Positions 3,008 to 53,019 are shown, numbered from the stretch's first letter. The stretch: 64,000 nucleotides of DNA from a candidate division FCPU426 bacterium (GCA_963771075.1 CAVYSE010000002.1:14714-78713); one strand, 5' to 3'. Made by a program: numbers and translations. The notes: generated by a model from the sequence alone, not told the origin.

Positions 3008-3085
3008 TGGCGGGGTTGACGGGGCTCGAACCCGCGACCTCCTGCGTGACAGGCAGGCGCTCTAACCAAGCTGAGCTACAACCCC
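3008..3085 (-). tRNA. tRNA-Asp (anticodon GTC) with genomically encoded 3' CCA
   Basis: The reverse complement reads GGGGTTGTAGCTCAGCTTGGTTAGAGCGCCTGCCTGTCACGCAGGAGGTCGCGGGTTCGAGCCCCGTCAACCCCGCCA. It has a 7-bp acceptor stem (GGGGTTG/CAACCCC), D-loop AGCTCAGTTGGTTAGAGC-like, anticodon stem CCTGC/GCAGG with loop CTGTCAC, and T-arm GCGGGTTCGAGCCCCGT. Confidence 0.85.
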
Positions 3086-9365: not shown

Positions 9366-10414
9366 CTGAATTCAACCAGTAAGTGCAACACCTAGGCGAA
9401 AGACTTGCTCCGGCGTTTTGAAGCCAAGACACTTGCGGGGACGACCATTGAGAATCCGTTCCACGCGCCTGACTTGAGCTGGGGTTATGTTAGCAAAATC
9501 GGTTTTCTTCGGATAGAAGCGTCGAATCAAACCGTTGGTGTTTTCCACGGTGCCTTTTTCCCAACTGTGGAATGGCAGGCAGAAGAAAGACCTAGTGCCC
9601 AAAACGGCATTGACCTGGAGGTGTTCGACGTTCTCCGAGCCGTTGTCATAGGTGATGGTCCTGCGGAGTCCCTTGGAAAATTGACCGAGGCGACGATTGA
9701 TAGCCATACGGGTATTTGACGCGGATTTCTGGGGCAGCCAAGCAAGTTTTACCAGTCGGCTCTTTCTTTCGACCATGACCAAGATAGAAGCTTTGCTCTG
9801 CCTGGAAATGATAGTGTCCATCTCCCAGTGGCCGTATTGGTCCCGTGCCTTGACGATGGCAGGGCGTTGGGTGATTGAAACGCGTTGTGGGATATGGCTT
9901 TTGCGGTGATTGTGGGAATGCCATCGCCGAAGTCGTTTTCGATGGGAGCGAGCCAAGAAGGGAATGAGATGCCGAGCTTTGCTATAGATGAACTGGTAGA
10001 CGGCCTCGTGGGAAATGGAGATTTTGGATTTCTCCTGGTGAAGTTGACCGGCGATTTGTTCGGGTGAAAGACCTTGCCGAAGTTTACGCAAGACATACCG
10101 GCGCAGTTCGGGTTTCTTGAGCCGAAAGTGAGTTCGAGAGATCTGGTTGCGCAAGATGGCCCGATCGTGAGCCCTGGCAGGAAGATACCGGCCGGGACGT
10201 AAGGGAGGGGCGTTGCGCTTCAACTCTCGGGAAACGCTGGAAACATCACGGCCAAGGCGTTTGGCGATTTTTCGCAGGGAAAGGCCTTGAGCCTTCCAAA
10301 TAGAGATTTTTTCACGTTCGGCTAACAATAGATGCCTGTAGGATTGTTTCATGAAACTTAGGATAACCCCCGGGTTCTGCCGGGCCTAAGTGTTGCACTT
10401 CGTTATTGAACTGG
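9366..10414 (-). mobile_element. IS30-family insertion sequence (~1.05 kb) with imperfect terminal inverted repeats
   Basis: Inverted repeat cores AGTGCAACACCTAGGC (9381-9396) and GCCTAAGTGTTGCACT (10384-10399) match 15 of 16 positions, with weaker matches extending ~15 bp outward. They enclose a single transposase gene. Confidence 0.75.
9372..10352 (-). CDS. IS30 family transposase (N-terminal HTH, DDE/rve catalytic core)
   Basis: N-terminal HTH (SLRKIAKRLGRDVSSVSRELKRN) and the IS30-type HWEMD motif (usually HWEGD). The catalytic core includes TITYDNGSE. Length is 326 aa. Confidence 0.8.
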   Translation of the reverse strand: MKQSYRHLLLAEREKISIWKAQGLSLRKIAKRLGRDVSSVSRELKRNAPPLRPGRYLPARAHDRAILRNQISRTHFRLKKPELRRYVLRKLRQGLSPEQIAGQLHQEKSKISISHEAVYQFIYSKARHLIPFLARSHRKRLRRWHSHNHRKSHIPQRVSITQRPAIVKARDQYGHWEMDTIISRQSKASILVMVERKSRLVKLAWLPQKSASNTRMAINRRLGQFSKGLRRTITYDNGSENVEHLQVNAVLGTRSFFCLPFHSWEKGTVENTNGLIRRFYPKKTDFANITPAQVRRVERILNGRPRKCLGFKTPEQVFRLGVALTG

Positions 10415-11365: not shown

Positions 11366-14029
11366 TTATTCCTGCAGTTTCTTTTTCCACTCCACCAGCA
11401 GATTCAAAGCCTCCCGGGGCGAGAGATCGTCCGGGTCGATGGACTTGAGTTCTTCCAAAACGGGATGGGCGCCGCCCTGGCCGAAGAAAGAGAGCTGGGC
11501 GATTGATTTCTCGTCGGCCCTTTTGACTTCAGGCAGCACCTCCCCTTCGGGAACCGGGGGAACCGGTTCCGTCCCCGCCGGGCCCTTGCTGGCCCTTAAC
11601 CCTGTGCCCGTCTCAAGGGAAGTCAAAATCTTCTTCGCCCTTTCCACCACCGGTTTGGGCACCCCGGCCAGGCGGGCCACCTGGATTCCATAGCTCTTGT
11701 CGGCCCCGCCCTCCACGATCTTGTGGAGGAACAGCACCTGGTCGTTCCATTCCCTGACCGCGATATTGAAATTGCGGACCTGCGGAAAGGTCGTCGCCAA
11801 CCGGGTCAGCTCGTGGTAGTGGGTGGCGAAGAGGGTGCGGGCGTTGATCTTTTGGGCCAGGTATTCCACCACGGCCCAGGCGATGGAGACCCCATCGTAA
11901 GTGGAGGTGCCGCGCCCTACCTCGTCCAAGATCAGAAGGCTCTTGGGGGTGGCGTGGTTGAGGATGTTGGCGGTCTCGACCATTTCCACCATGAAGGTGC
12001 TTTGGCCCTGGGTCAGGGCGTCGGAGGCCCCTACCCGGGAAAAGATGCGGTCCACGACCCCCAGTTTCATTTCCTTGGCCGGGACAAAGAACCCCACTTG
12101 CGCCATCAGGGTCAAAAGGGCCACCTGGCGGATATAGGTGCTTTTCCCCGCCATGTTCGGGCCGGTCAGGACAATGATTTCCACTCCGTCCGCGCCCAGT
12201 TTGGTGTCGTTGGGGACGAACTGGTCCGAGGAAAGCAGGCGGTCCAAAACGGCGTGGCGGCCATCCACGATGACCATTTCCCGGGAGTCGTCCACCTCGG
12301 GGCGCACGAACCGGCCCCGGTCGGCCACGGTGGCCATGCCGACGAAGACGTCCAGTTCGGCCAGGATATGGGCGGAACGCTGGAGCCGGGAAAGTTCCTT
12401 GGCGACTTCGGCGCGGATAGCCTCGAATATCTCATACTCAAGCCGGTTGGCCTTGTCCTGGGCCCCCAGTACCTTTCCTTCCATTTCCTTGAGTTCGGGG
12501 GTGATGAAACGTTCGGCGTTCACCAGGGTCTGTTTGCGGTGATAGTCGTGGGGAACCTTGTCCAGGTTGGCCTTGGAAACCTCGATGTAATAGCCGAACA
12601 CCGAGGTGTAGCGCACCTTGAGGGAGCCGATGCCCGTGCGGGCCTTTTCTTTTTCTTCCAGTTGGGCGATCCAACTTTTGCCTTCCAGGGAGGCGTCCTT
12701 CAATTCGTCCAACCGAGCGTCATAGCCCTTTCGGATGAGCCCGCCTTCCTTAAGGGCGAGGGGAGGCTCGGGGTCAATGGCCCGGTCCAAAAGCCCGTGC
12801 ACCTCGGTCAGGTTGTCCCATCCGTCCCGGCGATCCTTGATCCAGGCGCATTTGAAGGAAGATAGAACCCGGTGGACCTGGGGCAGGAGGGCCAGGGTGT
12901 TCTTGAGGGCGACCATGTCCCGCGCGTTGGCGGTGCCGCATCCTACCCGTCCCGAGAGGCGTTCCAAATCGGAAACCTGGCGGAAAAGGTCGCGAACCGT
13001 TTCCCTTTCCTCCAGGTGGGCGAAGAATTCTTCCACCGCGTCCTGGCGGCGTTTGATCTCTGAAACGGTGGTGAGGGGGGTCGTCAGCCATTGGCGTAAA
13101 AGCCTGCCCCCCATGGAAGTGACGGTTTCATCCAGCACCGAAAGAAGGGTGCCTTCCCGGCCGCCATCGCGCATGTTGCGGAGGATTTCCAGGTTTCGCT
13201 GGGTGGTCGCGTCCAACACCATGCCCTCCCCCACCTGAAAGTGGGTGAGTGAAACGATGTGGGAAAGAACGCTATGGGTAGTTTCCTTCAAGTATTGCAG
13301 AAGCGACCCGGCGGCCCGCACCGCCTGTTCCTCGCCCGACAGCCCGAAGCCATCCAGTGTTTTGACCTGGAAATGCTCCACCAAAGCTTCCTCGGCGCTC
13401 GCGTGGGAGAACTTCCAATCTTCCAAATGGGATAACTTGACCCCCTTCAGGTTTTGGAGAAGCTGGCGCCATTCGGGGGCGTCCGGCTGGTTTTGGGCGG
13501 TCAGCACTTCGGAAGGGGCGAACTTGAAGACCTCATTGGCCGCCTTGCTCCAGCGGGCGGGTCCGTGGAGTTCGCATGTCTTGAACTCACCCGTGCTCAC
13601 GTCCACCACCGAAAGCCCCAAGACCATGGGGGCATAGGCGAGGGCCACCATGTAGTTGTTGGCCTTTTCATCGAGCATGGAAGCGGAAAGCACGGTCCCG
13701 GGCGTGATGACGCGGGAAATTTCCCGCTTCACCAGTCCTTTGGCCAGGGCCGGGTCCTCGGCCTGCTCGCAGATCGCGATAGAAAAACCCTGCTTGACCA
13801 GGCGGGAAATGTAGTTTTCGGCGGCGTGGTAGGGGATCCCCGCCATGGGCACCTTTTGGCCCTTGCCTCCCTCCCGGGCAGTGAGGGTGAGGTTGAGGAC
13901 CCGGGCGGCCGTTTTGGCGTCATCGAAGAACATCTCGTAGAAATCGCCCAGTCGGAAGAAAAGCATCTCGTCCTTATGGACCCTTTTCATGTCCAGGTAC
14001 TGCCTCATCATGGGCGTGAGGTCTTCCAT
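11366..14029 (-). CDS. mutS: DNA mismatch repair protein MutS
   Basis: Mismatch-binding N-terminus (MMRQYLDMKRVHKDEMLFFRLGDFYEMFFDDA), Walker A GPNMAGKSTY and ABC signature FATHYHEL. The likely start is the internal Met giving MEDLTPMMRQY. Confidence 0.95.
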   Translation of the reverse strand: MEDLTPMMRQYLDMKRVHKDEMLFFRLGDFYEMFFDDAKTAARVLNLTLTAREGGKGQKVPMAGIPYHAAENYISRLVKQGFSIAICEQAEDPALAKGLVKREISRVITPGTVLSASMLDEKANNYMVALAYAPMVLGLSVVDVSTGEFKTCELHGPARWSKAANEVFKFAPSEVLTAQNQPDAPEWRQLLQNLKGVKLSHLEDWKFSHASAEEALVEHFQVKTLDGFGLSGEEQAVRAAGSLLQYLKETTHSVLSHIVSLTHFQVGEGMVLDATTQRNLEILRNMRDGGREGTLLSVLDETVTSMGGRLLRQWLTTPLTTVSEIKRRQDAVEEFFAHLEERETVRDLFRQVSDLERLSGRVGCGTANARDMVALKNTLALLPQVHRVLSSFKCAWIKDRRDGWDNLTEVHGLLDRAIDPEPPLALKEGGLIRKGYDARLDELKDASLEGKSWIAQLEEKEKARTGIGSLKVRYTSVFGYYIEVSKANLDKVPHDYHRKQTLVNAERFITPELKEMEGKVLGAQDKANRLEYEIFEAIRAEVAKELSRLQRSAHILAELDVFVGMATVADRGRFVRPEVDDSREMVIVDGRHAVLDRLLSSDQFVPNDTKLGADGVEIIVLTGPNMAGKSTYIRQVALLTLMAQVGFFVPAKEMKLGVVDRIFSRVGASDALTQGQSTFMVEMVETANILNHATPKSLLILDEVGRGTSTYDGVSIAWAVVEYLAQKINARTLFATHYHELTRLATTFPQVRNFNIAVREWNDQVLFLHKIVEGGADKSYGIQVARLAGVPKPVVERAKKILTSLETGTGLRASKGPAGTEPVPPVPEGEVLPEVKRADEKSIAQLSFFGQGGAHPVLEELKSIDPDDLSPREALNLLVEWKKKLQE

Positions 14030-14242
14030 ATAGCTCCCTAATGAAATTCTAAACCAACTTCCAACACGAAGACACAAAGGGCACTCAGTTCACAAACAGA
14101 CAATCTTTAGTTTTAACCAACTTTTCAAATGATCTTCGTGTCTTAATGGCTTTGACCCCTTTGGCCTTTAGGCCAAAGAATACGGGACCATATCATCCTC
14201 TTTATATCTTTTATTGATAGAGGGTATGTGTTTTTTTGGGTT

Positions 14243-33585: not shown

Positions 33586-33623
33586 AAGGAACATAGGGGC
33601 CAGAGAAGGAACATAGGGGCCAG
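33586..33623. repeat. tandem duplication of an 18-bp unit (AAGGAACATAGGGGCCAG x2) abutting the left inverted repeat of the Y1-transposase element
   Basis: Exact 18-bp direct repeats separated by 2 bp. Confidence 0.6.
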
Positions 33624-34629
33624 GCCTACATTTTACACTTTATAAGCTTCTTGGCGAACGCCCGGTCTCTTGCCATCTTCGCCTTGATCCTCGCCCATTG
33701 GTTCCCCACCGCCGAAAACCCTACCCCCATCCTTTTCCCGATCTCTTTTAAGCTCAATCCCGATTCTTTTTTCAACAAGTAAATCGCCACTTCCCTCGCT
33801 TCACGCCTTCTCCCGCCTGATTTAAGTATCTCTTCCGGCTTTTCCCCATACACTTCACCGATCTTCTCCAATACCTTTGCCGGTTCCTTTTTCACCACAT
33901 GCTTCTGGTACTTGGGCACATCCAGGTTTCGGTGTTTTCGACCTACCTCATGCACCTTGCCCAAAAACTCTTCTTTTCCCAGGTAAACCTGTGAAGAAAG
34001 CTCGTCCCAAGGCGATTCTTTCTTGCCCATCCCCTCCGCCACAAAACGCTTATAGCTGTCTTGGGCCTGCTTTTCCGTTTTTCCGAACTGCCCCAAGATC
34101 CAGTCCCTTTCCAGCCAGGTTTCGGCTTTGTCCATCCCAGCCGTCCCCCGGTAACTGCTCCATTTCCAATCCCCAGGCTTCTTGACCATTCGCGCCCTTA
34201 CTGGGTTTAACACCACATACCGGCACAACTCTTTCAAATAGCTTTCCTTCTCCACCACAATCGCCTTGAACCGCCCTTGAAAAAGATGGCCTGAACGGTA
34301 ATGTTTCTTGTTGAACCGCTGGGTGTAAATCGCATTCAGGTGCTTCATGGCCAAGGATAGGTTGGCTTCAGGAGTTTCCAGTAGGAGGTGGTAATGGTTA
34401 TCCATCAGCACCCAGGCATGGCAAACCACCTGGTTCTCCTCGATCATTTCACCCAATATTCTTATAAACATCCACCGGTCGGCGTCATCCATGACGATTT
34501 TTCGCCGCTCATTCCCCCGGGAAGTAACGTGGTACACGGCCCCTTCATAGTGTATCCGTTTGGGTCTTGGCATGGAGACATCTTACAACCTACGATGCCC
34601 CTGTAAAGTGTAATATGTAGGCCTGGCCC
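33616..34629 (-). mobile_element. ~1.0-kb element bounded by 27-bp inverted repeats and carrying a single Y1 (HuH) transposase gene
   Basis: Left end GGGGCCAGGCCTACATTTTACACTTTA (33616-33642). The right end's reverse complement is GGGGCCAGGCCTACATATTACACTTTA (34603-34629), matching 26 of 27 positions. Confidence 0.65.
33626..34573 (-). CDS. IS200-like / RAYT-like tyrosine (Y1, HuH) transposase with a C-terminal HTH resembling the DnaA C-terminal DNA-binding domain
   Basis: HuH motif HYHLLLETP, catalytic Tyr region KWSSY, and C-terminal EVAIYLLKKESGLSLKEIGKRMGVGFSAVGNQWARIK. Confidence 0.7.
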   Translation of the reverse strand: MPRPKRIHYEGAVYHVTSRGNERRKIVMDDADRWMFIRILGEMIEENQVVCHAWVLMDNHYHLLLETPEANLSLAMKHLNAIYTQRFNKKHYRSGHLFQGRFKAIVVEKESYLKELCRYVVLNPVRARMVKKPGDWKWSSYRGTAGMDKAETWLERDWILGQFGKTEKQAQDSYKRFVAEGMGKKESPWDELSSQVYLGKEEFLGKVHEVGRKHRNLDVPKYQKHVVKKEPAKVLEKIGEVYGEKPEEILKSGGRRREAREVAIYLLKKESGLSLKEIGKRMGVGFSAVGNQWARIKAKMARDRAFAKKLIKCKM

Positions 34630-34938
34630 CTTTGTTTTTGTTCAGCGGTGACAAATTAATTGTAAATTCTTTAATGTTAATCGGAGGAACTGCCAATTAT
34701 TGTGCAGTTTTTTAAAAGAATGTAGATTTTACATACCAAACTAAATCTTGGTTTTCCCTGGGTTTCTAATCTTCCCAGAAATCACAACAATGCATCCAGA
34801 AGGGTTAAGGAATGGGGCGGGCAGCCAGGAATGTAAAGATTCACTGGCACGGTAGGGGCAGCGCCACCCAACAGCTGGGGATTCTTCAGAAATGGCCCCC
34901 GATAAATAAACCAAGTTGCGGGGGCCTACAAAACTAAA

Positions 34939-37394: not shown

Positions 37395-38063
37395 ATGGTT
37401 CGACAAAAAGCAATCGTCTCCTGGTCCAGCGGGAAAGACAGCGCCTGGGCGCTTCATCAAGCAAGGCTTGATCCCGGTTTGGAGGTCGTCGGGCTCCTCA
37501 CGACGGTCACCCAAGACTTCCACCGGGTCTCCATGCACGGGGTTCGGGAGGAACTGTTGGAAGCCCAGGCGCGTTCGCTGGGCCTCCCCCTGGTCAAAGT
37601 CCCAATCCCCTACCCCTGCCCGAACGAAACATATGAAGCGGCCATGTCCACAGCCCTGAGTAAGGCCCGTGAGAATGGCGTGACGCGCATTGTCTTCGGC
37701 GACCTTTACTTGGGGGACGTCCGAAAATATAGGGAAGCAAAACTGGAAGGGTCCGGCTTCGAAGGCGTTTGGCCCCTTTGGCTCAAGGACACCCGGACCC
37801 TCTCCCGCCAGATGGTGGAAGCGGGCCTCAAGGCCACGGTTGCGTGCCTGGACCCCAAACACCTGTCCCGATCCTTCGCGGGGCGCGAATACGACGTCCG
37901 ACTGCTTCAAGACCTTCCCAGGGAAGTGGACCCCTGCGCGGAAAACGGCGAATTCCACACCTTCGCCTGGGGCGGGCCCATGTTCTCAAAACCCGTTTCT
38001 TTTCGGGTCGGGGAAACCGTCGAGCGGGACGGGTTTGTCTTCACGGATTTATTACCCGCTTAA
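37395..38063 (+). CDS. PP-loop ATP-binding domain protein (Dph6/MJ0570-like adenine-nucleotide alpha-hydrolase)
   Basis: N-terminal SWSSGKDS PP-loop motif, ~220 aa. Confidence 0.65.
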   Translation: MVRQKAIVSWSSGKDSAWALHQARLDPGLEVVGLLTTVTQDFHRVSMHGVREELLEAQARSLGLPLVKVPIPYPCPNETYEAAMSTALSKARENGVTRIVFGDLYLGDVRKYREAKLEGSGFEGVWPLWLKDTRTLSRQMVEAGLKATVACLDPKHLSRSFAGREYDVRLLQDLPREVDPCAENGEFHTFAWGGPMFSKPVSFRVGETVERDGFVFTDLLPA

Positions 38064-38090: not shown

Positions 38091-40068
38091 TGCAGAGTAG
38101 AGCGCTGGCGCGTATGCCTTAGAGTACGGTGGCGAATCCAACCCTTTCGGATTGGGCCTCAGTCCGGCTCTCATCACCACGTTTCCAGCGCCCCCTCATC
38201 AAACCGTACGTGACCTTTTCGATCATACGGCTTTCCGACAACCTTTCAACCGGCAGCATTCAAGGCAAAAGCTGGAATCCAGTTCAAACCAAGGCGTTTC
38301 ACTTCCTCGATCGACCATGTTCGTCCTTCCCAGGCGTACTTATGCCTCCGAAACAAAGTCAGCCTTTCGAGTACGTAAAATTGAAGCTTGGAAAAGTATG
38401 GCTGGCTGTCCCCAATTCGGAAATAGTTGGCCCACCCCCTTAACACCGGGTTCAAAGCCTTCGCTACATCCTCCATTGGAGATAAGAGCCGCTCTCGGCC
38501 CGCCGTCATCTGCTTCACTTTCTCGGCGATTTTCTTCATGGCCTTCCGGCTCGGCCAGCTCAGGCAACAGGTCTTACCCAATCCTACCACCGGCATACCT
38601 ACTCGAAAGTGGAACCCAAGGAAGTCAAACCCTTCCTTCCCAGGCCCCATTTCCACCAGCCGTGTCTTTTCGGGGTGCAGTTCAAGCCCTAGTCGTCCCA
38701 TCAATTCCTTGATGACTTCCAGGCTCTTTTCCGCATGGGCTTGGCTTCCGCACAACACCACAAAATCGTCGGCGTAGCGCACCAGCCTACCCAGTTTCCT
38801 GTGCCTCTTATTCCAAACCTTGTCCAGCAAGTGAAGGTAAACATTGGATAACAGCGGTGAGATCACCCCGCCTTGCGGTGTCCCTCGGAGAGTCGGCGTA
38901 AGCCTTCCTTCCTCAAACACACCCGCCTTCAGCCACCCTCGGATCAGTTTCAAAACCTTCCGGTCACTGATCCTCTGGCGCACCAGCACCATCAGTTTGT
39001 CGTGGTCGATGGAATCGAAATACTTCCGAATATCTCCATCCACCACCCATCTGTACCCGCCATTGATCCACTTCTTGATCTCCCGGTGGGCCTGCTGGGC
39101 TCCGCGTTTTGGCCGAAATCCAAACGAGCCTTCCAGAAAGTCCGCCTCAAAGATGGGTTCCACCACCTTCCGGCAAGCCGCTTGAACTACCCGATCCCGA
39201 ATTACCGGGATTCCCAACGGTCTCTTGCTTCCATCAGGCTTGGGTATTTCCACTCGTCTCACAGGTTTAGGCAGATACTTCCCAGCTTTGAGTTCTTCCT
39301 GGATGCCCTTCAGGAATGGAATAATTCCCACCTTCTCTTCGATCCATTCCAGCGTTTCCCCGTCCACTCCTCCTTGGCCTTTATTAGCCTTCACCTGTTT
39401 CCATGCCGCTGTCAGGACATCCCATCGGGTCATCCTGTCATGCAGTACATGAAATCTCCGGCTTGGGCTCCTCTTGGCCGCTCGGTATAGCGCCCTTTGA
39501 AGGGTTCGCGCCTTGTCTTCGGAGTTGTTGGCCCTTTGGGGCATGCTCCAGCGCCTCCCTTTTGAAGGTTGCTTGGTTGAAGCAGGGGTCCTTCCCTCCA
39601 GGTGGTTTTGTTGTCCACCCTTCACAGGTATTGTGACCCCCTCCGACTTCCTCCCGCCCTTGCCCCTTTTCGGTTTTAGCCTTATAGCGGCAAGTCTTTT
39701 GGCGGGTAGGATCTCCCAGGTTGCTTGCAAAGCCTTTCCAGCATTCCGTTCCCCATACGCCGGAGGACTTGCCCCGCTTGCTCCAGATTCTTCAGCGGGA
39801 TCGTGGCCTTCGCCGGTAGACACGCGGCTCGGCATCCTCTTGCACCTTTCGGTGTCCCATTCACGACGCGGCAGGATTCACTTGATGTTGCGGACTGCTA
39901 GATTGTTCCCTCACTGAATGAGGTTTATGACCCCGTTTCGGGCAGAACCTCTCGGTCCTACGCCGGGGGCTGACTTCCAGGCTCTCTGGCGATTACCTGG
40001 TCAGGATTTGGGCTGGCCCTCTTCGGCCTACTCCCTCACCTGCTGGCTCTACAAACCTTCGCTGGCAC
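38091..40068 (-). mobile_element. group II intron (class C-like, bacterial), full copy with intron-encoded protein; boundaries approximate (+/- a few nt)
   Basis: Domain V is recognisable on the minus strand (AAGCCGTATGATCGAAAAGGTCACGTACGGTT) about 100 nt from the 3' end. The 5' end (GTGCCAGCGAAGG...) lies 2-3 nt after the 28-bp palindrome R1. The intron-encoded RT/maturase ORF sits in domain IV. Boundaries were defined by comparison with the second copy at 42539-43335. Confidence 0.85.
38246..39544 (-). CDS. group II intron reverse transcriptase/maturase (intron-encoded protein)
   Basis: RT domains with YADD (RYADDFVVLC), fingers/palm PQGGVISPLLSNVYL, and a C-terminal maturase. Start assigned to the internal Met (MPQRANN...) because the upstream 97 codons translate intron RNA domains also present in the ORF-less copy. 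Confidence 0.85.
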   Translation of the reverse strand: MPQRANNSEDKARTLQRALYRAAKRSPSRRFHVLHDRMTRWDVLTAAWKQVKANKGQGGVDGETLEWIEEKVGIIPFLKGIQEELKAGKYLPKPVRRVEIPKPDGSKRPLGIPVIRDRVVQAACRKVVEPIFEADFLEGSFGFRPKRGAQQAHREIKKWINGGYRWVVDGDIRKYFDSIDHDKLMVLVRQRISDRKVLKLIRGWLKAGVFEEGRLTPTLRGTPQGGVISPLLSNVYLHLLDKVWNKRHRKLGRLVRYADDFVVLCGSQAHAEKSLEVIKELMGRLGLELHPEKTRLVEMGPGKEGFDFLGFHFRVGMPVVGLGKTCCLSWPSRKAMKKIAEKVKQMTAGRERLLSPMEDVAKALNPVLRGWANYFRIGDSQPYFSKLQFYVLERLTLFRRHKYAWEGRTWSIEEVKRLGLNWIPAFALNAAG

Positions 40069-40070
40069 GA

Positions 40071-40097
40071 TGTCCACGATGGGTCCCTATCGTGGCC
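40071..40097. repeat. palindromic cassette-boundary repeat R1 (TGTCCACGATGGGTCCCTATCGTGGCC), 10 bp 3' of the yafQ-like stop; intron A is inserted just beyond it
   Basis: Member of the 28-bp palindrome family. Its right arm is degenerate. Confidence 0.7.
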
Positions 40098-40106
40098 TTA
40101 TACATA

Positions 40107-40376
40107 TCATTCAAATAAATCCGAATGTGTTCCGGTTCTTTCAAAAATGATTTCGCTACCCGAGAGCTTGTAAATCAAAAGCCAATCAGGCTCCAAATGG
40201 CACTCCCAGCGATCCTTGTAGTTCCCTGAGAGTTTATGATTCCGAAATCGAGGTTCTAAAACGCTCTGAGATATCAAACAACTGGCGACATCCTTGAACT
40301 TTTCGACAAGTTTGCCACGCCGAATCATCAATTTAAGATCTTTCTGAAATTGGTTGGTGTAGGAAGGGATAAGCAT
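40107..40376 (-). CDS. type II toxin, RelE/YafQ family mRNA interferase
   Basis: 89 aa RelE/YafQ-like. It overlaps the upstream antitoxin gene by 1 bp. Confidence 0.65.
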   Translation of the reverse strand: MLIPSYTNQFQKDLKLMIRRGKLVEKFKDVASCLISQSVLEPRFRNHKLSGNYKDRWECHLEPDWLLIYKLSGSEIIFERTGTHSDLFE

Positions 40377-40636
40377 CAGATGCCGAGTTTATTGAACATG
40401 TCCTCGGCATTCTTAGTTCGGACCAGATGCCGGCCTTTATCCGTAGACTTGAAAACGGCCTTCGTTTTCGCATTCGGTAGGGTGACATCGAAAGGCAGCC
40501 CGCGCCTCAAAAGGATTTGACTGTAATAAATCGAGATGGCCTGGCTGGCTGTAAGCCCCAATTGGTGTAACAACTTTTCCGTATCGGCCTTCAAATGCGG
40601 TTCTAACCGCGCGCGGACTGTCGCTTCTTTTGCCAT
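40376..40636 (-). CDS. type II antitoxin, DinJ/RelB-like
   Basis: 86 aa with an N-terminal RHH-like segment (ATVRARLEPHLKADTEKLLHQLGLTASQAISIY). Immediately upstream of the toxin. Confidence 0.6.
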   Translation of the reverse strand: MAKEATVRARLEPHLKADTEKLLHQLGLTASQAISIYYSQILLRRGLPFDVTLPNAKTKAVFKSTDKGRHLVRTKNAEDMFNKLGI

Positions 40637-40703
40637 ATAGATCCCCCTTTAAGGAACTAAAGGAAGTGTAGCTCGTTTGGGCTACATTTACAAGCCACTT
40701 CAT

Positions 40704-40731
40704 TGTTCACGATGGGTCCCCGTCGTGGACA
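40704..40731. repeat. palindromic repeat R2 (TGTTCACGATGGGTCCCCGTCGTGGACA)
   Basis: Near-consensus copy, 208 bp 3' of ORF 40939..41952. Its left flank (AAGCCACTTCATT) resembles that of R8. Confidence 0.8.
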
Positions 40732-40938
40732 ATTTCAATTATGATTGCGGCCATAGTATTGCAAGTAGCCGTATCCGATCTGCCCCCTTCATTGGCCTTA
40801 AAAGGGTTTGACCAGGCCCTGCATGTGCACCAACAATATTCGAGAATGGAGTTTTCTTGCGTGACTCTGCCCGCCTAGCCCCTTCTTTAGCGGCTCAGTA
40901 ACGCGTTTCAAACAACGGGCCTTTTCAAAATTCCAACC

Positions 40939-41952
40939 TTATTTCCCGATCACCTCGACTTGAATCTCAAATACCTTATGTTGCCTCTCGTTTCTCCAAT
41001 TGGTTTCCCAAACCGCCACGGTACTCTTCCCCGGTTTCACGGCCTTCAGCCGGTCGAAGTAATATCCTCTGCTAATCCGCACAGACGACCCTGTGTATTT
41101 CTCGGCCGTTGTTTCCGCCACCGATTTCCCCTGAATCGTCAATTTATAAAAAGGCCCCCTATTGCTGCCGGATCGACCTTCCCGCAGGAAAAAAACGTCG
41201 TTCAGGGCCACTTTGTTCACCGGATAAAAATTAAATTCCGTTCGGGCTATGCGTGTATTACCTGAACCATCCACTGCGTCGACCTCAAGGATGTTTTTAC
41301 CGGGTGAAGGAGCCGTTTCGATCGAACCGCTCAAGTGAAAAGCATCCGGACCCTCGGGGGAACATTTCGGATCGACCGGGAGACCATTGATTAAGACCCG
41401 TACACTGGAGGGGACCAAGTAATACCCATCCCAAAGGACCGGGTCGATTTTGGGGGCGAACAAACCTTCTTGGTCATCCGGCGGTCCAACAATGAAAACC
41501 GCCGACAGGGGCCGGTAATCGAATGAAGTTTCAGCCGACCACTCGCCTACACGGATTTTCACTTTCTTGGTACCGGGTGCTCCGGGATAAATATTAAAAT
41601 AAAATTCATAATCTCTCAGTTGCCCCGCTTGGCTGTCACCCCGGCCCCCGAGCCTAAACTCCGCTTTATTACCGTTGATCCACAACTTGGCCTCACCCCG
41701 CGATAGGAGGTCCATTATTTCGCCGTCTGTCTTGTAGTCGTCTTTGGGCAAGGGCACGATGAACCTTAGGGTGGCGGTGCCTGCGTTTATCGGGTTTAAG
41801 TAATTCCAGTCCGAGGCAGAACTTGGGTTCGGCAAAGATACTTCGATCCGCGGTTTGGACATATCCAAGTTTGCGCCGAAACATATGGTTGCGATCAGCA
41901 TTCCCAAAAAAAGGACGACATTAGCCACTACATTGAAAACCGTGCTTTTCAT
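40939..41952 (-). CDS. hypothetical secreted protein (signal peptide / N-terminal TM)
   Basis: N-terminal hydrophobic segment VVANVVLFLGMLIATICFGA. No recognisable domain. Confidence 0.45.
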   Translation of the reverse strand: MKSTVFNVVANVVLFLGMLIATICFGANLDMSKPRIEVSLPNPSSASDWNYLNPINAGTATLRFIVPLPKDDYKTDGEIMDLLSRGEAKLWINGNKAEFRLGGRGDSQAGQLRDYEFYFNIYPGAPGTKKVKIRVGEWSAETSFDYRPLSAVFIVGPPDDQEGLFAPKIDPVLWDGYYLVPSSVRVLINGLPVDPKCSPEGPDAFHLSGSIETAPSPGKNILEVDAVDGSGNTRIARTEFNFYPVNKVALNDVFFLREGRSGSNRGPFYKLTIQGKSVAETTAEKYTGSSVRISRGYYFDRLKAVKPGKSTVAVWETNWRNERQHKVFEIQVEVIGK

Positions 41953-42005
41953 AGACCTTCCCCATTGTTTTTCCCATTTATTAAGTCACACCCTATGCGT
42001 TTACC

Positions 42006-42033
42006 TGTCCACAAAGGGTCCCCGTCGTGGACA
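42006..42033. repeat. palindromic repeat R3 (TGTCCACAAAGGGTCCCCGTCGTGGACA)
   Basis: 41 bp 3' of ORF 42074..42484. Confidence 0.8.
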
Positions 42034-42073
42034 AAAAACCGAAGACCAGTAGTACCCCCGCCTATTTTTTACC

Positions 42074-42484
42074 CTAAGTCCTTTTCTTTTTTAACCAAAC
42101 CCCAAAAAAACATCCAATCGTCCAGGGTGTAATTACAAGAAACAACCAAAATAAAAAGAAATATAAAATACCGTCGCTAAACATTCCGCTGAGGGCAATA
42201 GCCCAAAAAATGATGCTGATAAAAATCAACGGCCAAATAAATTTTCGAACATCCAAACCAATTCTAGAACTCTGGAGAGTACCAGCCAGAAACATAGAAA
42301 TAAAAGGGCCAAAAAATAACTCAATGTATAACCAAAGCGGAAAAGGTCGTCCGTGAGAATAAGGAAGATACTTCTCTAATATATCTTGTAAAAGATTTGC
42401 TATCAGAACAACAGCTATAAAAGAACCCAAGACAGTTCCAATGAAAATAGGCACTGTGTTAATAATTTCTTTACGATTATTCAA
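42074..42484 (-). CDS. hypothetical integral membrane protein (3-4 TM helices)
   Basis: Hydropathy only. Confidence 0.4.
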   Translation of the reverse strand: MNNRKEIINTVPIFIGTVLGSFIAVVLIANLLQDILEKYLPYSHGRPFPLWLYIELFFGPFISMFLAGTLQSSRIGLDVRKFIWPLIFISIIFWAIALSGMFSDGILYFFLFWLFLVITPWTIGCFFGVWLKKKRT

Positions 42485-42538
42485 AATTTATTCCTCTTGC
42501 GAAGGGCGTAACTTATTAGATTTCAATACAAGAAATCA

Positions 42539-43335
42539 TGCAGAGTAGAGCACTGGCGCGGTGGTGTACAGGTCGGCCCTTGGCTGTATCCGCCGTTTCC
42601 GGCTTCGTGCCCGTTTAGGGACTCCCATCACTTCGTTTCCAGCGCCCCCTCGTCAAACCGTACGTGACCTTTTCGATCATACGGCTTTCCGACAACCTTT
42701 CCTCCGGCGGCTTTACAGGTTCGACTTCCCCCTTGGCCACTCGGTATAGTGCCTGTTATCGATGGTCCCGCGCTTTGGTACTACAGAGTTGTTGGCCCTT
42801 TTGGGGCATGCTCCAGCGCCTACCTTCTTTGAGACACATGGTTGAAGCAGGGGTCCTTCCCTCAGGGTGGTTTTGTTGTCCACCCCTTCATCGGTACTGT
42901 GACCCCCTCCGACTTCCTCCCACCCTTGCCTCTTTTCGGTTTTAGCCTTATAGCGGCAAGTCTTTTGGCGGGTAGGATCTCCCAGCTTGCTTGCATAGCC
43001 TTTCCAACATTCCGTTCCCCATACTCCGGAGGACTTGCCCCGCTTGCTACCAGATTCTTCAGCGGGATCGTGGCCTTCGCCAGTAGACACGCGGCTCGGC
43101 ATCCCCTTGCACCTTTCGGTGTCCCATTCACGAAGCGGCAGGATTCACTTGATGTTGCGGACTGCTGGATTGTTCCCTCACTAAATGAGGTTTATGACCC
43201 CGTTTCGGGCAGAACCTCTCGGTCCTACGCCGGGGGCTGACTTCCAGGCTCTCTGGCGATTACCTGGTCAGGATTTGGGCTGGCCCTCTTCGGCCTACTC
43301 CCTCACCTGCTGGCTCTACAAACCTTCGCTGGCAC
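42539..43335 (-). mobile_element. ORF-less deletion derivative (~0.8 kb) of the same group II intron, retaining ~590 bp of the 5' region and ~240 bp of the 3' region including domain V
   Basis: Near-identical to intron A over 39500-40068 and 38091-38330. The RT ORF is deleted. Inserted 2-3 nt after palindrome R4. Confidence 0.75.
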
Positions 43336-43337
43336 GA

Positions 43338-43365
43338 TGTCCACGATGGGTCCCCATCGTGGACA
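43338..43365. repeat. palindromic repeat R4 (TGTCCACGATGGGTCCCCATCGTGGACA, perfect 12-bp arms)
   Basis: 9 bp 3' of ORF 43374..43811. Intron B abuts it. Confidence 0.85.
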
Positions 43366-43832: not shown

Positions 43833-43860
43833 TGTTCACGATGGGTCCCCGTAGTGGACA
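43833..43860. repeat. palindromic repeat R5 (TGTTCACGATGGGTCCCCGTAGTGGACA)
   Basis: 20 bp 3' of ORF 43880..44113. Confidence 0.8.
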
Positions 43861-44158: not shown

Positions 44159-44186
44159 TGTCCACGAAGGCTCCCGGTCGTAGAGA
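44159..44186. repeat. degenerate palindromic repeat R6 (TGTCCACGAAGGCTCCCGGTCGTAGAGA)
   Basis: 60 bp 3' of the GH12 gene. Confidence 0.55.
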
Positions 44187-52991: not shown

Positions 52992-53019
52992 TCGAATTTA
53001 AGATTCCCCATCGTGGACA
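52992..53019. repeat. degenerate palindromic repeat R10 (right arm CCCCATCGTGGACA conserved)
   Basis: 28 bp 3' of the RelE-like gene. Confidence 0.5.

Follow-up and report, generated by a model that had tools for sequence, protein, structure and literature searches.

Group II introns at the 3' end of a palindromic cassette repeat: probable sequence-specific homing and a lineage without the protein gene

What leads a mobile intron to the boundary between gene cassettes, and whether a copy without its protein gene is still a propagating element, are the questions raised by a 64,000-nt stretch of DNA from a candidate division FCPU426 bacterium (GCA_963771075.1 CAVYSE010000002.1:14714-78713), which in its full length is called the window here and whose positions are counted from its first letter. 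The minus strand of the window carries two group II intron copies, A and B, both scoring above the Rfam gathering thresholds and both lying beside copies of a 28-nt palindromic repeat. Group II introns are six-domain ribozymes with a conserved domain V (D5) and a domain VI (D6) that bears a bulged branch-point A, and their termini read 5'-GUGYG … AY-3'. We refer to the family of A and B as W and to two other intron families, seen in related loci and not in the window, as X and Y; fetched loci are numbered with the prefix L. Our results indicate that W is probably a lineage of the Rfam D1D4-4 type, without an endonuclease (En) domain and without the second exon-binding site (EBS2), that homes to the 3' end of the repeat by means of its first exon-binding site (EBS1), and that B belongs to a sub-lineage of it that has no open reading frame (ORF) and would be mobilised in trans.

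Intron A is a full-length member of 1979 nt (38092..40070, minus strand; Rfam matches and A/B alignment) with the termini 5'-UCGUGCCAG ... CUCUACUCUGC-3'. Its 5' end at 40070 was placed by homology and by the register of pairing between EBS1 and the intron-binding site of the exon (IBS1), and its 3' end at 38092 by a many-copy alignment and the end of the RF00029 model. The matches to RF02003 (D1D4-4) are located at 39883-40019 in A and 43150-43286 in B, and those to RF00029 (D5/D6) at 38092-38235 and 42566-42689, respectively. Domain IV (D4) of A encodes an intron-encoded protein (IEP) of 432 aa (38246..39544, minus strand) with reverse transcriptase (RT) blocks RT0-7, including YADD, and an X/maturase domain; it matches RVT_1 (PF00078, 1.8e-38), GIIM (PF08388, 2.8e-14) and the NCBIfam model TIGR04416 (423 bits, cut-off 300). 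The Met at 39544 is likely to be the start codon, since the same 432-aa start was called for the homologue P0001, which is 92% identical. The protein ends about 20 residues past the maturase domain and therefore has no DNA-binding (D) or En region.

Domain V of A, which shows an AGC triad and a 2-nt bulge, occupies 38201..38233 (RF00029 alignment and minimum free energy, MFE, fold), and domain VI occupies 38095..38197 (MFE fold, z = -3.5). The EBS1 loop of A, CGUGUCUAC, comprises 9 nt (39816..39824) and was identified at the tip of the d-arm of domain I, as a hairpin in RNAalifold columns 245-261, the stem of which shows covariation. Intron B, the ORF-less member, comprises 798 nt (42540..43337, minus strand; Rfam, A/B alignment and fold) and retains D1-D3, D5 and D6, with the EBS1 loop CGUGUCUAC at 43083..43091 (RNAalifold and pairing table), a domain V identical to that of A at 42655..42687 (alignment and fold) and a domain VI at 42543..42651 (fold). 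In the MFE folds of both copies the basal helix of domain VI contains the predicted bulged A, at 38098 in A and 42546 in B, 7 nt from the 3' end. The consensus structure of D1-D3, built with RNAalifold from nine family members, comprises 141 pairs, and compensatory changes are seen in 36 of these. An earlier sequence-only reading of this locus had described two group II introns, one with an RT/maturase and one without an ORF, and had asked that they be folded into group II domains; the Rfam matches, the IEP domains, the D1-D3 consensus and the folds of D5 and D6 bear out this description.

Alignment of the two copies revealed about 97% identity across the first ~500 nt (D1-D3), complete identity in D5 and near-identity over the last ~25 nt. 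The loss in B, previously put at ~1.2 kb including the IEP gene, agrees with the ~1.18 kb of ORF found missing: the first ~30 codons are kept but frameshifted, and the similarity resumes a few codons before the stop. The proposed near-identity at both ends thus stands for these regions and fails in the distal extension of D6, which is ~75 nt long in both copies and exists in two different variants, 'A' (38109-38184) and 'B' (42557-42638). The B-type extension is also found in the otherwise different intron Y (L087:~1440-1530), and distant relatives of W have a short, ordinary D6 (RF00029 matches of 52-74 nt, as against ~145 nt in A and B). A and B are flanked by unrelated cassettes, and the B locus was confirmed in an independent long contig, L222, with 797 of 798 intron positions identical. 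As had been noted before, intron A sits at the 3' edge of the array, beside a convergent plus-strand gene (37395-38063, Diphthami_syn_2).

The repeat beside which both introns lie has the consensus TGTCCACGAYGGGGACCCnnnGTGGACA, with 13-bp arms around a GA centre. Five perfect palindromes are present on the minus strand of the window: R1, AGGCCACGATAGGGACCCATCGTGGACA (40071..40098), which is the last of the array and whose final 7 nt constitute the IBS1 of intron A; R2 (40704..40731) and R3 (42006..42033), both empty; R4, TGTCCACGATGGGGACCCATCGTGGACA (43338..43365), whose final 7 nt constitute the IBS1 of intron B; and R5 (43833..43860), also empty. The minus-strand array extends beyond these five, from 40071 to at least 53689, with degenerate copies at 44159, 45636, 47297 and 49572 as well as near 53019 and 53689. 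The cassette genes between the repeats are small, all on the minus strand and rich in toxin-antitoxin systems, and include RelB/YafQ, two PIN/antitoxin pairs, hypothetical membrane proteins, and GH12, SPFH and Sel1-repeat proteins. That the introns are tied to the palindrome and oriented as the cassette genes had been recognised from the sequence, and both points hold.

The last base of the repeat (…GTGGACA|) directly adjoins the 5' ends of A and B, provided that the true 5' ends are located 2 nt upstream of the GTGCC motif at which the introns appear to begin. All W insertions on repeats read …GACA-KC-GTGCCAG…, in which K is T, G or C, and the question is whether the KC dinucleotide belongs to the intron or to the exon. 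Among the matches listed in the metagenome scan described below, T directly follows the repeat in 2 of 282 empty copies and in 6 of 10 filled ones, which assigns this T to the intron. From this and the further sequence comparisons given below we conclude that KC is part of the intron, which gives A = 38092-40070 and B = 42540-43337. The inferred 5' start of W is then (U/G/C)CGUG, which would be a variant of GUGYG, with GUGCC two bases inward as a look-alike; the window copies start with UCGUG and L081 with the canonical GUGUG. At the other end, W copies read …CUCUACUCU(G/A)C, the terminus being GC in A and B and AC in some of their relatives, and the next base is almost always A; the A that follows each 3' end (38092 and 42540) belongs to the exon. 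An unoccupied target would accordingly be expected to read …GTGGACAA… and not …GTGGACATCA…. The insertion 2-3 nt after the palindrome claimed by the sequence-only reading arose from taking the GUGYG look-alike as the start; the 5' ends lie at 40070 and 43337 instead of 40068 and 43335, and the 3' ends, placed at 38091 and 42539, shift by 1 nt on the evidence of the alignment and the RF00029 model end.

With these boundaries, positions 3-9 of the EBS1 loop are complementary to the 7 nt with which the repeat ends (GUGGACA). Across 14 copies, 88 of 98 positions are paired in this register, compared with 26-49 at other offsets, and in 13 of the 14 copies 6 or 7 of the 7 IBS1-EBS1 positions pair. 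Loop and target covary in five combinations (UGUCUAC/GUGGACA, UGUCCAC/GUGGACA, UGUUCUU/GGGGACA, UGUCUUA/UAUGACA and UUCAUGC/GCAUGGG), two of which concern targets other than the 28-nt repeat, one of these without an evident hairpin. A second D1 hairpin loop (alignment columns 280-296) and GGAUG/GCUG motifs were also considered as EBS1 and were rejected, as they show no covariation with the targets. The position occupied by EBS2 in other introns is taken up by a GAAA-capped (GNRA) hairpin at d2 of W, which is absent in relatives, and target positions -8 to -11 are variable.

The alternative boundary, with the intron starting at GUGCC and the 5' exon ending in …GGACA(U/G)C, would leave two unpaired exon bases between the EBS1 helix and the splice site. 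The resemblance of GUGCC to GUGYG speaks for it, as does the GUGCG start of X and Y, and the base in question varies among close relatives, which is normal for an exon. Yet this offset yields only 49 of 98 pairs. GTDB genomes supplied ~25 distant relatives, with 40-57% identity in the IEP and, wherever tested, a D1D4-4 match in Rfam; in these the homologous loop, CUCAUGUCA and variants, forms pairs as far as the splice site, with its position 3 opposite exon base -1 of …CAUG|GUGCG and with covariation. Stem I(i) is preceded by 6 nt in the relatives, against 3 in W counted from GUGCC and 5 counted from two bases upstream; a start at GUGCC would moreover require sites with T after the repeat, which make up less than 1% of the empty repeats among the matches listed, and L081 reads canonical GUGUG in the shifted register. 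We thus regard a start at GUGCC as very unlikely. Annotation pipelines anchored on GUGYG would place the 5' end of W 2 nt off.

Evidence from other loci is consistent with the pairing of EBS1 with the repeat end. Homologues of the IEP at 67-92% identity were found in metagenome assemblies only, and W copies were collected from the contigs of these homologues and by searching all loci with the 5' and 3' ends of the intron. At least 12 independent W insertions beside the 28-nt repeat were identified on other contigs; the one in L147 occupies the palindrome's opposite strand. The expectation that the intron boundary would coincide with the repeat in other copies is thus borne out by these insertions and breaks down in L081 and in L094-096, in which W occupies other targets. 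In L094-096 a sub-lineage is inserted at AATGACACGWATATGACA (junctions at L094:5483, L095:5484 and L096:3689), with no evident hairpin at the target, and in L081 a different hairpin is located 13 nt away.

Several side observations concern these loci. The sequence AATGACACGWATATGACA is unoccupied in L203:5666-5684, where its neighbours are a tRNA gene and the gene of a generic tyrosine integrase, and in L095 and L096 it is positioned just downstream of an integrase of this type; possibly it is the attachment-site repeat of an integrative element. In a search with the window MutS (11366-14077), relatives from metagenome-assembled genomes reached 75-91% identity and the best named phyla (Aureabacteria, B38, Schekmanbacteria, Nitrospinae and Latescibacterota) only ~50%; the 2.05-Mb contig with L081 comes from a relative at 77% MutS identity. 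In reference genomes, the introns most closely related to W belong to Acidobacteriota, Actinomycetota, Myxococcota and Planctomycetota (L004-L025 and others); nearly all are inserted directly after …CATG or ATG, with the junctions CATG|GTGCGTCC or CATG|TTGCGTCC, and their EBS1 loop contains CAUG, which looks like a lineage homing to a very short ATG-containing motif.

The occupancy of repeats was further assessed in a scan of metagenomes of the Joint Genome Institute, for which the left arm and centre of the repeat served as the query and which yielded at least 120 contigs, the majority of them from peat, bog and soil (loci L097-L216). The matches listed contain 292 distinct repeat copies, spaced 0.4-1.5 kb apart; 10 of the 292 are filled by the W family. 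These ten all have the arm nnnGACA, and W fills none of the 73 repeats in which the arm is different. In the window, both occupied repeats end in GTGGACA, the two further repeats with this arm, R3 among them, have G as the next base, and the remaining arms are mismatched to EBS1, including those of R2 and R5 (both GTGAACA). Occupancy by arm sequence fits the assignment of IBS1 to the 3' arm of the palindrome.

A mechanism can be proposed on this basis. W would home sequence-specifically to the 3' end of the 28-nt cassette-separating repeat in an uncultured lineage of soil and peat bacteria, and because its EBS1 loop would pair with the final 7 nt of this repeat, it would enter directly after the terminal A and usually before another A. 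Intron A would supply the RT/maturase, and B would depend for its splicing and mobility on an IEP of this kind acting in trans. The ribonucleoprotein would reverse-splice into the DNA strand with GTGGACA|A and may use the nascent strand at the replication fork as primer, a mode of mobility inferred from other En-minus introns, RmInt1 and class IIC members (PMC4424553). The introns would be spliced from cassette transcripts, as established knowledge of group II introns leads one to expect.

Could W instead be a class IIC or IIC-like intron that reads the palindrome as a DNA or RNA stem-loop and inserts a few bases downstream by means of a very short IBS1? The sequence-only reading had favoured this class, with recognition of a stem-loop rather than an exon sequence, and several features agree with it: the absence of an En domain and of EBS2, a strongly palindromic target, a single orientation in 11 of 12 repeat insertions, which is that of the array, and a best match of the IEP in the PDB to IIC RTs (E 1e-65, as against 1e-50 for IIB, classes D, E and F having no PDB representative). 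Furthermore, the 5' sequence of L081, GUGUGCCAGG, resembles that of B.h.I1 as quoted in PMC1702495. The published criteria for IIC (Toor et al., 2006, PMC1702495) are a short D5 with CGC for AGC, an IBS1-EBS1 pairing of 3-4 bp, an 11-nt ε′ bulge with AGGAA, and no EBS2. Domain V of W, AAGCCGUAUGAUCGAAAAGGUCACGUACGGUUU, is of normal length (~33-34 nt) and has AGC, its IBS1 comprises 7 bp, and a check of the sequence found no AGGAA ε′ motif in domain I, this motif being present only at J2/3 and near D4/D5. W, all tested relatives and intron Y match D1D4-4, whereas the Oceanobacillus IIC intron of the crystal structure was assigned to D1D4-3 (PMC3965019). As to the stem-loop, a palindrome is present at most W sites, but IBS1 is its 3' arm and is not located downstream of the stem; EBS1 covaries with the 7-nt target, also at the hairpin-less L094-096 and at L081, and the insertion in L147 is on the opposite strand. 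By the criteria tested, the RNA of W is not IIC, and the features common to IIC and W are limited to a missing EBS2 and a missing En domain. Recognition of the stem-loop by a IIC-type intron therefore appears unlikely, and neither the class nor the mode of recognition proposed earlier is supported.

The position of W among other En-minus introns can be narrowed as follows. W and nearly all of its relatives have YADD. Class F and the groups g1-g4 (Toro and Martinez-Abarca, 2013) reportedly are En-minus varieties with an RT+X IEP, without D or En, and an IIB-like RNA, and are assigned to clades by signatures of the X domain and the C-terminus. Toro group g2 has FADD in place of YADD (PMC3552965), and membership of W in g2 is hence unlikely.

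Homing of W by EBS1 to the repeat end is, in our view, the probable explanation, and the following points weigh against it, together with the PDB matches and the shared orientation of repeat insertions given above. Neither of the window sites yielded an empty allele in BLAST of the flanks against all fetched loci, in k-mer searches with the 3' flanks or in exact-protein look-ups of the neighbouring cassettes; apart from homologous cassettes with other downstream neighbours (L184 and L211), the copies returned were all filled, so that the boundaries and the 5' splice site are placed by comparison and not by a filled/empty pair. The first base of the intron varies (U, G or C), which is odd for group II introns. 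No D1 column covaries with the +1 base as EBS3 would. In L084 and equivalent loci only 3 of 7 IBS1 pairs are formed, since another intron now lies inside the IBS1; that W inserted there first and was later split is plausible, and is an ad hoc assumption. Finally, the hairpin itself may contribute to the targeting of W; the orientation bias may reflect such a contribution, the direction of replication or selection for spliceable insertions.

The second question concerns the nature of intron B. Bacteria rarely carry group II introns without an ORF, and B might be a dead remnant, that is, an internally deleted copy or a duplicate of A, with the A/B pair as a local accident. In support of this, B has no IEP of its own, and the short-read scaffold L223 (ERZ19044461 scaffold_23559) joins the upstream cassette of B to a sequence 100% identical to A, which illustrates how easily such repeats are confused. 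L223 itself probably arose when the assembly was mis-joined across the 5' part common to both introns, and calls for caution in inferring intron content from short-read metagenomes. Opposed to a dead remnant is L208:454-1250, an ORF-less intron that shares the deletion junction of B at a different repeat with different flanks and is 91.5% identical to B, from which it follows that the ORF-less form has spread and diverged. Furthermore, B keeps every helix of D1-D3, an identical D5 and a D6 with the branch-point A, the flanks of A and B are unrelated, and the B locus recurs in L222. A dead remnant thus seems rather unlikely, and comparison of these copies identifies the ORF-less form as a propagating lineage and not a one-off deletion. 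The B-type D6 is also present in 3' fragments of L147 and L166. As B is nearer to A than to L208 in D1-D3 and nearer to L208 in D4-D6, an exchange of sequence with a resident full-length copy is suggested.

B keeps the D4 segment around the start of the ORF, which in studied introns (Ll.LtrB) is the primary binding site of the IEP. By analogy, the IEP of A or one like it would mobilise B in trans; the dependence of the ORF-less copy on this protein, proposed earlier, is plausible. In Thermosynechococcus elongatus, full-length introns reportedly coexist with ORF-less relatives that retain the ribozyme and proliferate by means of an IEP provided in trans, and this mobilisation is reported to have been demonstrated experimentally. 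Those introns are of the CL/IIB1 type with En and have other targets, and the trans-mobilisation of W is presumptive. The locus thus offers a natural pair of an autonomous and a presumptive non-autonomous intron.

What, then, is the repeat that the introns exploit? Among the matches listed, its orientation is constant within each array, even where a cassette gene is reversed (L085); one RelB/YafQ cassette has differing downstream neighbours in L184 and L211, and one cassette start was found behind different repeats. On these three grounds, the comparison of arrays identifies the 28-nt repeat as the boundary of shuffled cassettes. The attC sites of integrons are imperfect palindromes of 55-140 nt with R''/L''…L'/R' boxes (RYYYAAC…GTTRRRY), and are recombined by the integrase IntI. 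The repeat is not recognisable as attC: it comprises 28 nt, ends in GTGGACA and contains no GTTRRRY core, and no integron integrase turned up near the arrays. The window has no integrase gene. In ~135 array loci, screened for motifs and by tblastn with approximate query sequences of IntI1 and XerD, no integron integrase was detected; only generic tyrosine recombinases of integrative elements were returned, with 44-51 bits for TIGR02249 (cut-off 265). A literature search on the sequence of the 28-nt repeat yielded nothing relevant.

A gene for a tyrosine transposase associated with repetitive extragenic palindromes (REP-associated tyrosine transposase, RAYT), with Y1_Tnp and a DnaA-C helix-turn-helix (NF047646, 92 bits, cut-off 80), is located at 33626-34573 on the minus strand. 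The 28-nt palindrome was considered as the REP of this neighbouring gene and rejected, the gene having its own unrelated 33-nt inverted repeats (33610-34636). Orthologues of the RAYT (70-81% identity) occur within 0.3-4 kb of arrays in L097, L108, L119 and L141, a proximity that may reflect either conserved synteny or a functional connection.

The 28-nt site is used at other positions by two more intron families. Intron X belongs to Rfam D1D4-6 (131 bits), occurs in RT-encoding and ORF-less forms (L084:4689-5481, L085:~10226 and L195:~2619; IEP at L088:331-1662) and is inserted after …GTGGA (…GTGGA|CA), two bases short of the repeat end. Intron Y, which is ORF-less and matches D1D4-4 with 113-117 bits, is positioned at the repeat centre, TGTCCACGACG|GGGACCC (L087:719-1548, L084:~9630, L086:~9634, L108:~11443 with a 3' end at 978, L188, and L090 with a 3' end at 228). 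Both begin with GUGCG, and their EBS1 loops (UCCACGA in X, CGUCGUGG in Y) pair up to the splice site, that of Y with the left arm. Where X and W are adjacent (L084-L089 and L093), X splits the IBS1 of W in a nested, twintron-like arrangement, and the exon pairing of W would be restored there only once X had been spliced out.

Several known systems resemble W in part. IIC-attC introns such as S.ma.I2 share with it the lack of En and EBS2, a palindromic site that bounds cassettes, and arrays rich in toxin-antitoxin genes (PMC4424553, PMC3001079, PMC7923331). They differ in their CGC triad, short D5 and IBS1 of 3-4 bp and in their insertion into the bottom strand of attC, opposite to cassette transcription, whereas W has AGC, a 7-bp IBS1, a D1D4-4 structure, mostly cassette orientation and a 28-nt target that is not recognisable as attC. 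The terminator-targeting IIC introns of the B.h.I1 type likewise lie beside an intergenic inverted repeat, lack EBS2 and En and have a similar 5' sequence, GUGUGCCAGG (PMC1702495); in W, by contrast, the palindrome's 3' arm serves as a 7-nt IBS1, which covaries with EBS1. Similar in geometry are UHB.I2 (CL1/IIB1) and H.ha.F1/F2 (class E), non-IIC, En-minus introns that are inserted just after a cassette-boundary palindrome in cassette orientation (Sonbol and Siam, 2021, PMC7923331). They occur in toxin-antitoxin-rich arrays or clusters of attC sites lacking integron integrases (CALINs), as single or truncated cases in which pairing with the site has not been demonstrated (PMC7923331); W, by comparison, is found at 12 or more sites with EBS1-IBS1 covariation, and its repeat is much shorter than attC, with no integron integrase seen. 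RmInt1 (class D), which inserts into ISRm2011-2, is similarly En-minus and homes by EBS/IBS pairing into repeated, dispensable DNA (PMC1802570, PMC5894124). It uses EBS1, EBS2 and EBS3 on an insertion sequence (IS), whereas W relies on a single 7-nt EBS1 plus position +1 on a 28-nt palindrome.

Three target specificities are recognised for group II introns, namely homing sites, terminators and attC, the last two in class C only (PMC4424553). Specialisation for cassette palindromes has so far been credited to class IIC, and W would represent a non-IIC, EBS2-less intron that reaches such a site by Watson-Crick homing with a single 7-nt EBS1. Its five loop/target combinations within one family provide a clear natural case of EBS1 retargeting. 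In addition, the arrays point to an undescribed, widespread cassette-array repeat in soil and peat bacteria. More tentatively, and with considerable doubt, we propose that the repeat marks an undescribed integron-like cassette system with 28-nt sites and no IntI, possibly served by a REP-type Y1 transposase or an unseen recombinase; that at least three intron lineages independently retargeted their EBS1 to three positions of it (W to …GTGGACA, X to …GTGGA and Y to the centre); and that W spawned a self-propagating ORF-less retroelement. If this were true, the repeat would be a shared 'safe harbour' for retroelements, like attC for IIC-attC introns but evolved separately.

Features elsewhere in the window include genes for a TraG/TrwB-type coupling protein (865-2484) and an rve-type (IS) transposase (9372-10352), and a tRNA gene (3011-3085). 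The low GC content at this other end of the window (0.41-0.48 at 1-3 kb, ~0.44-0.50 at 9-11 kb) suggests that another integrated mobile element is located there.

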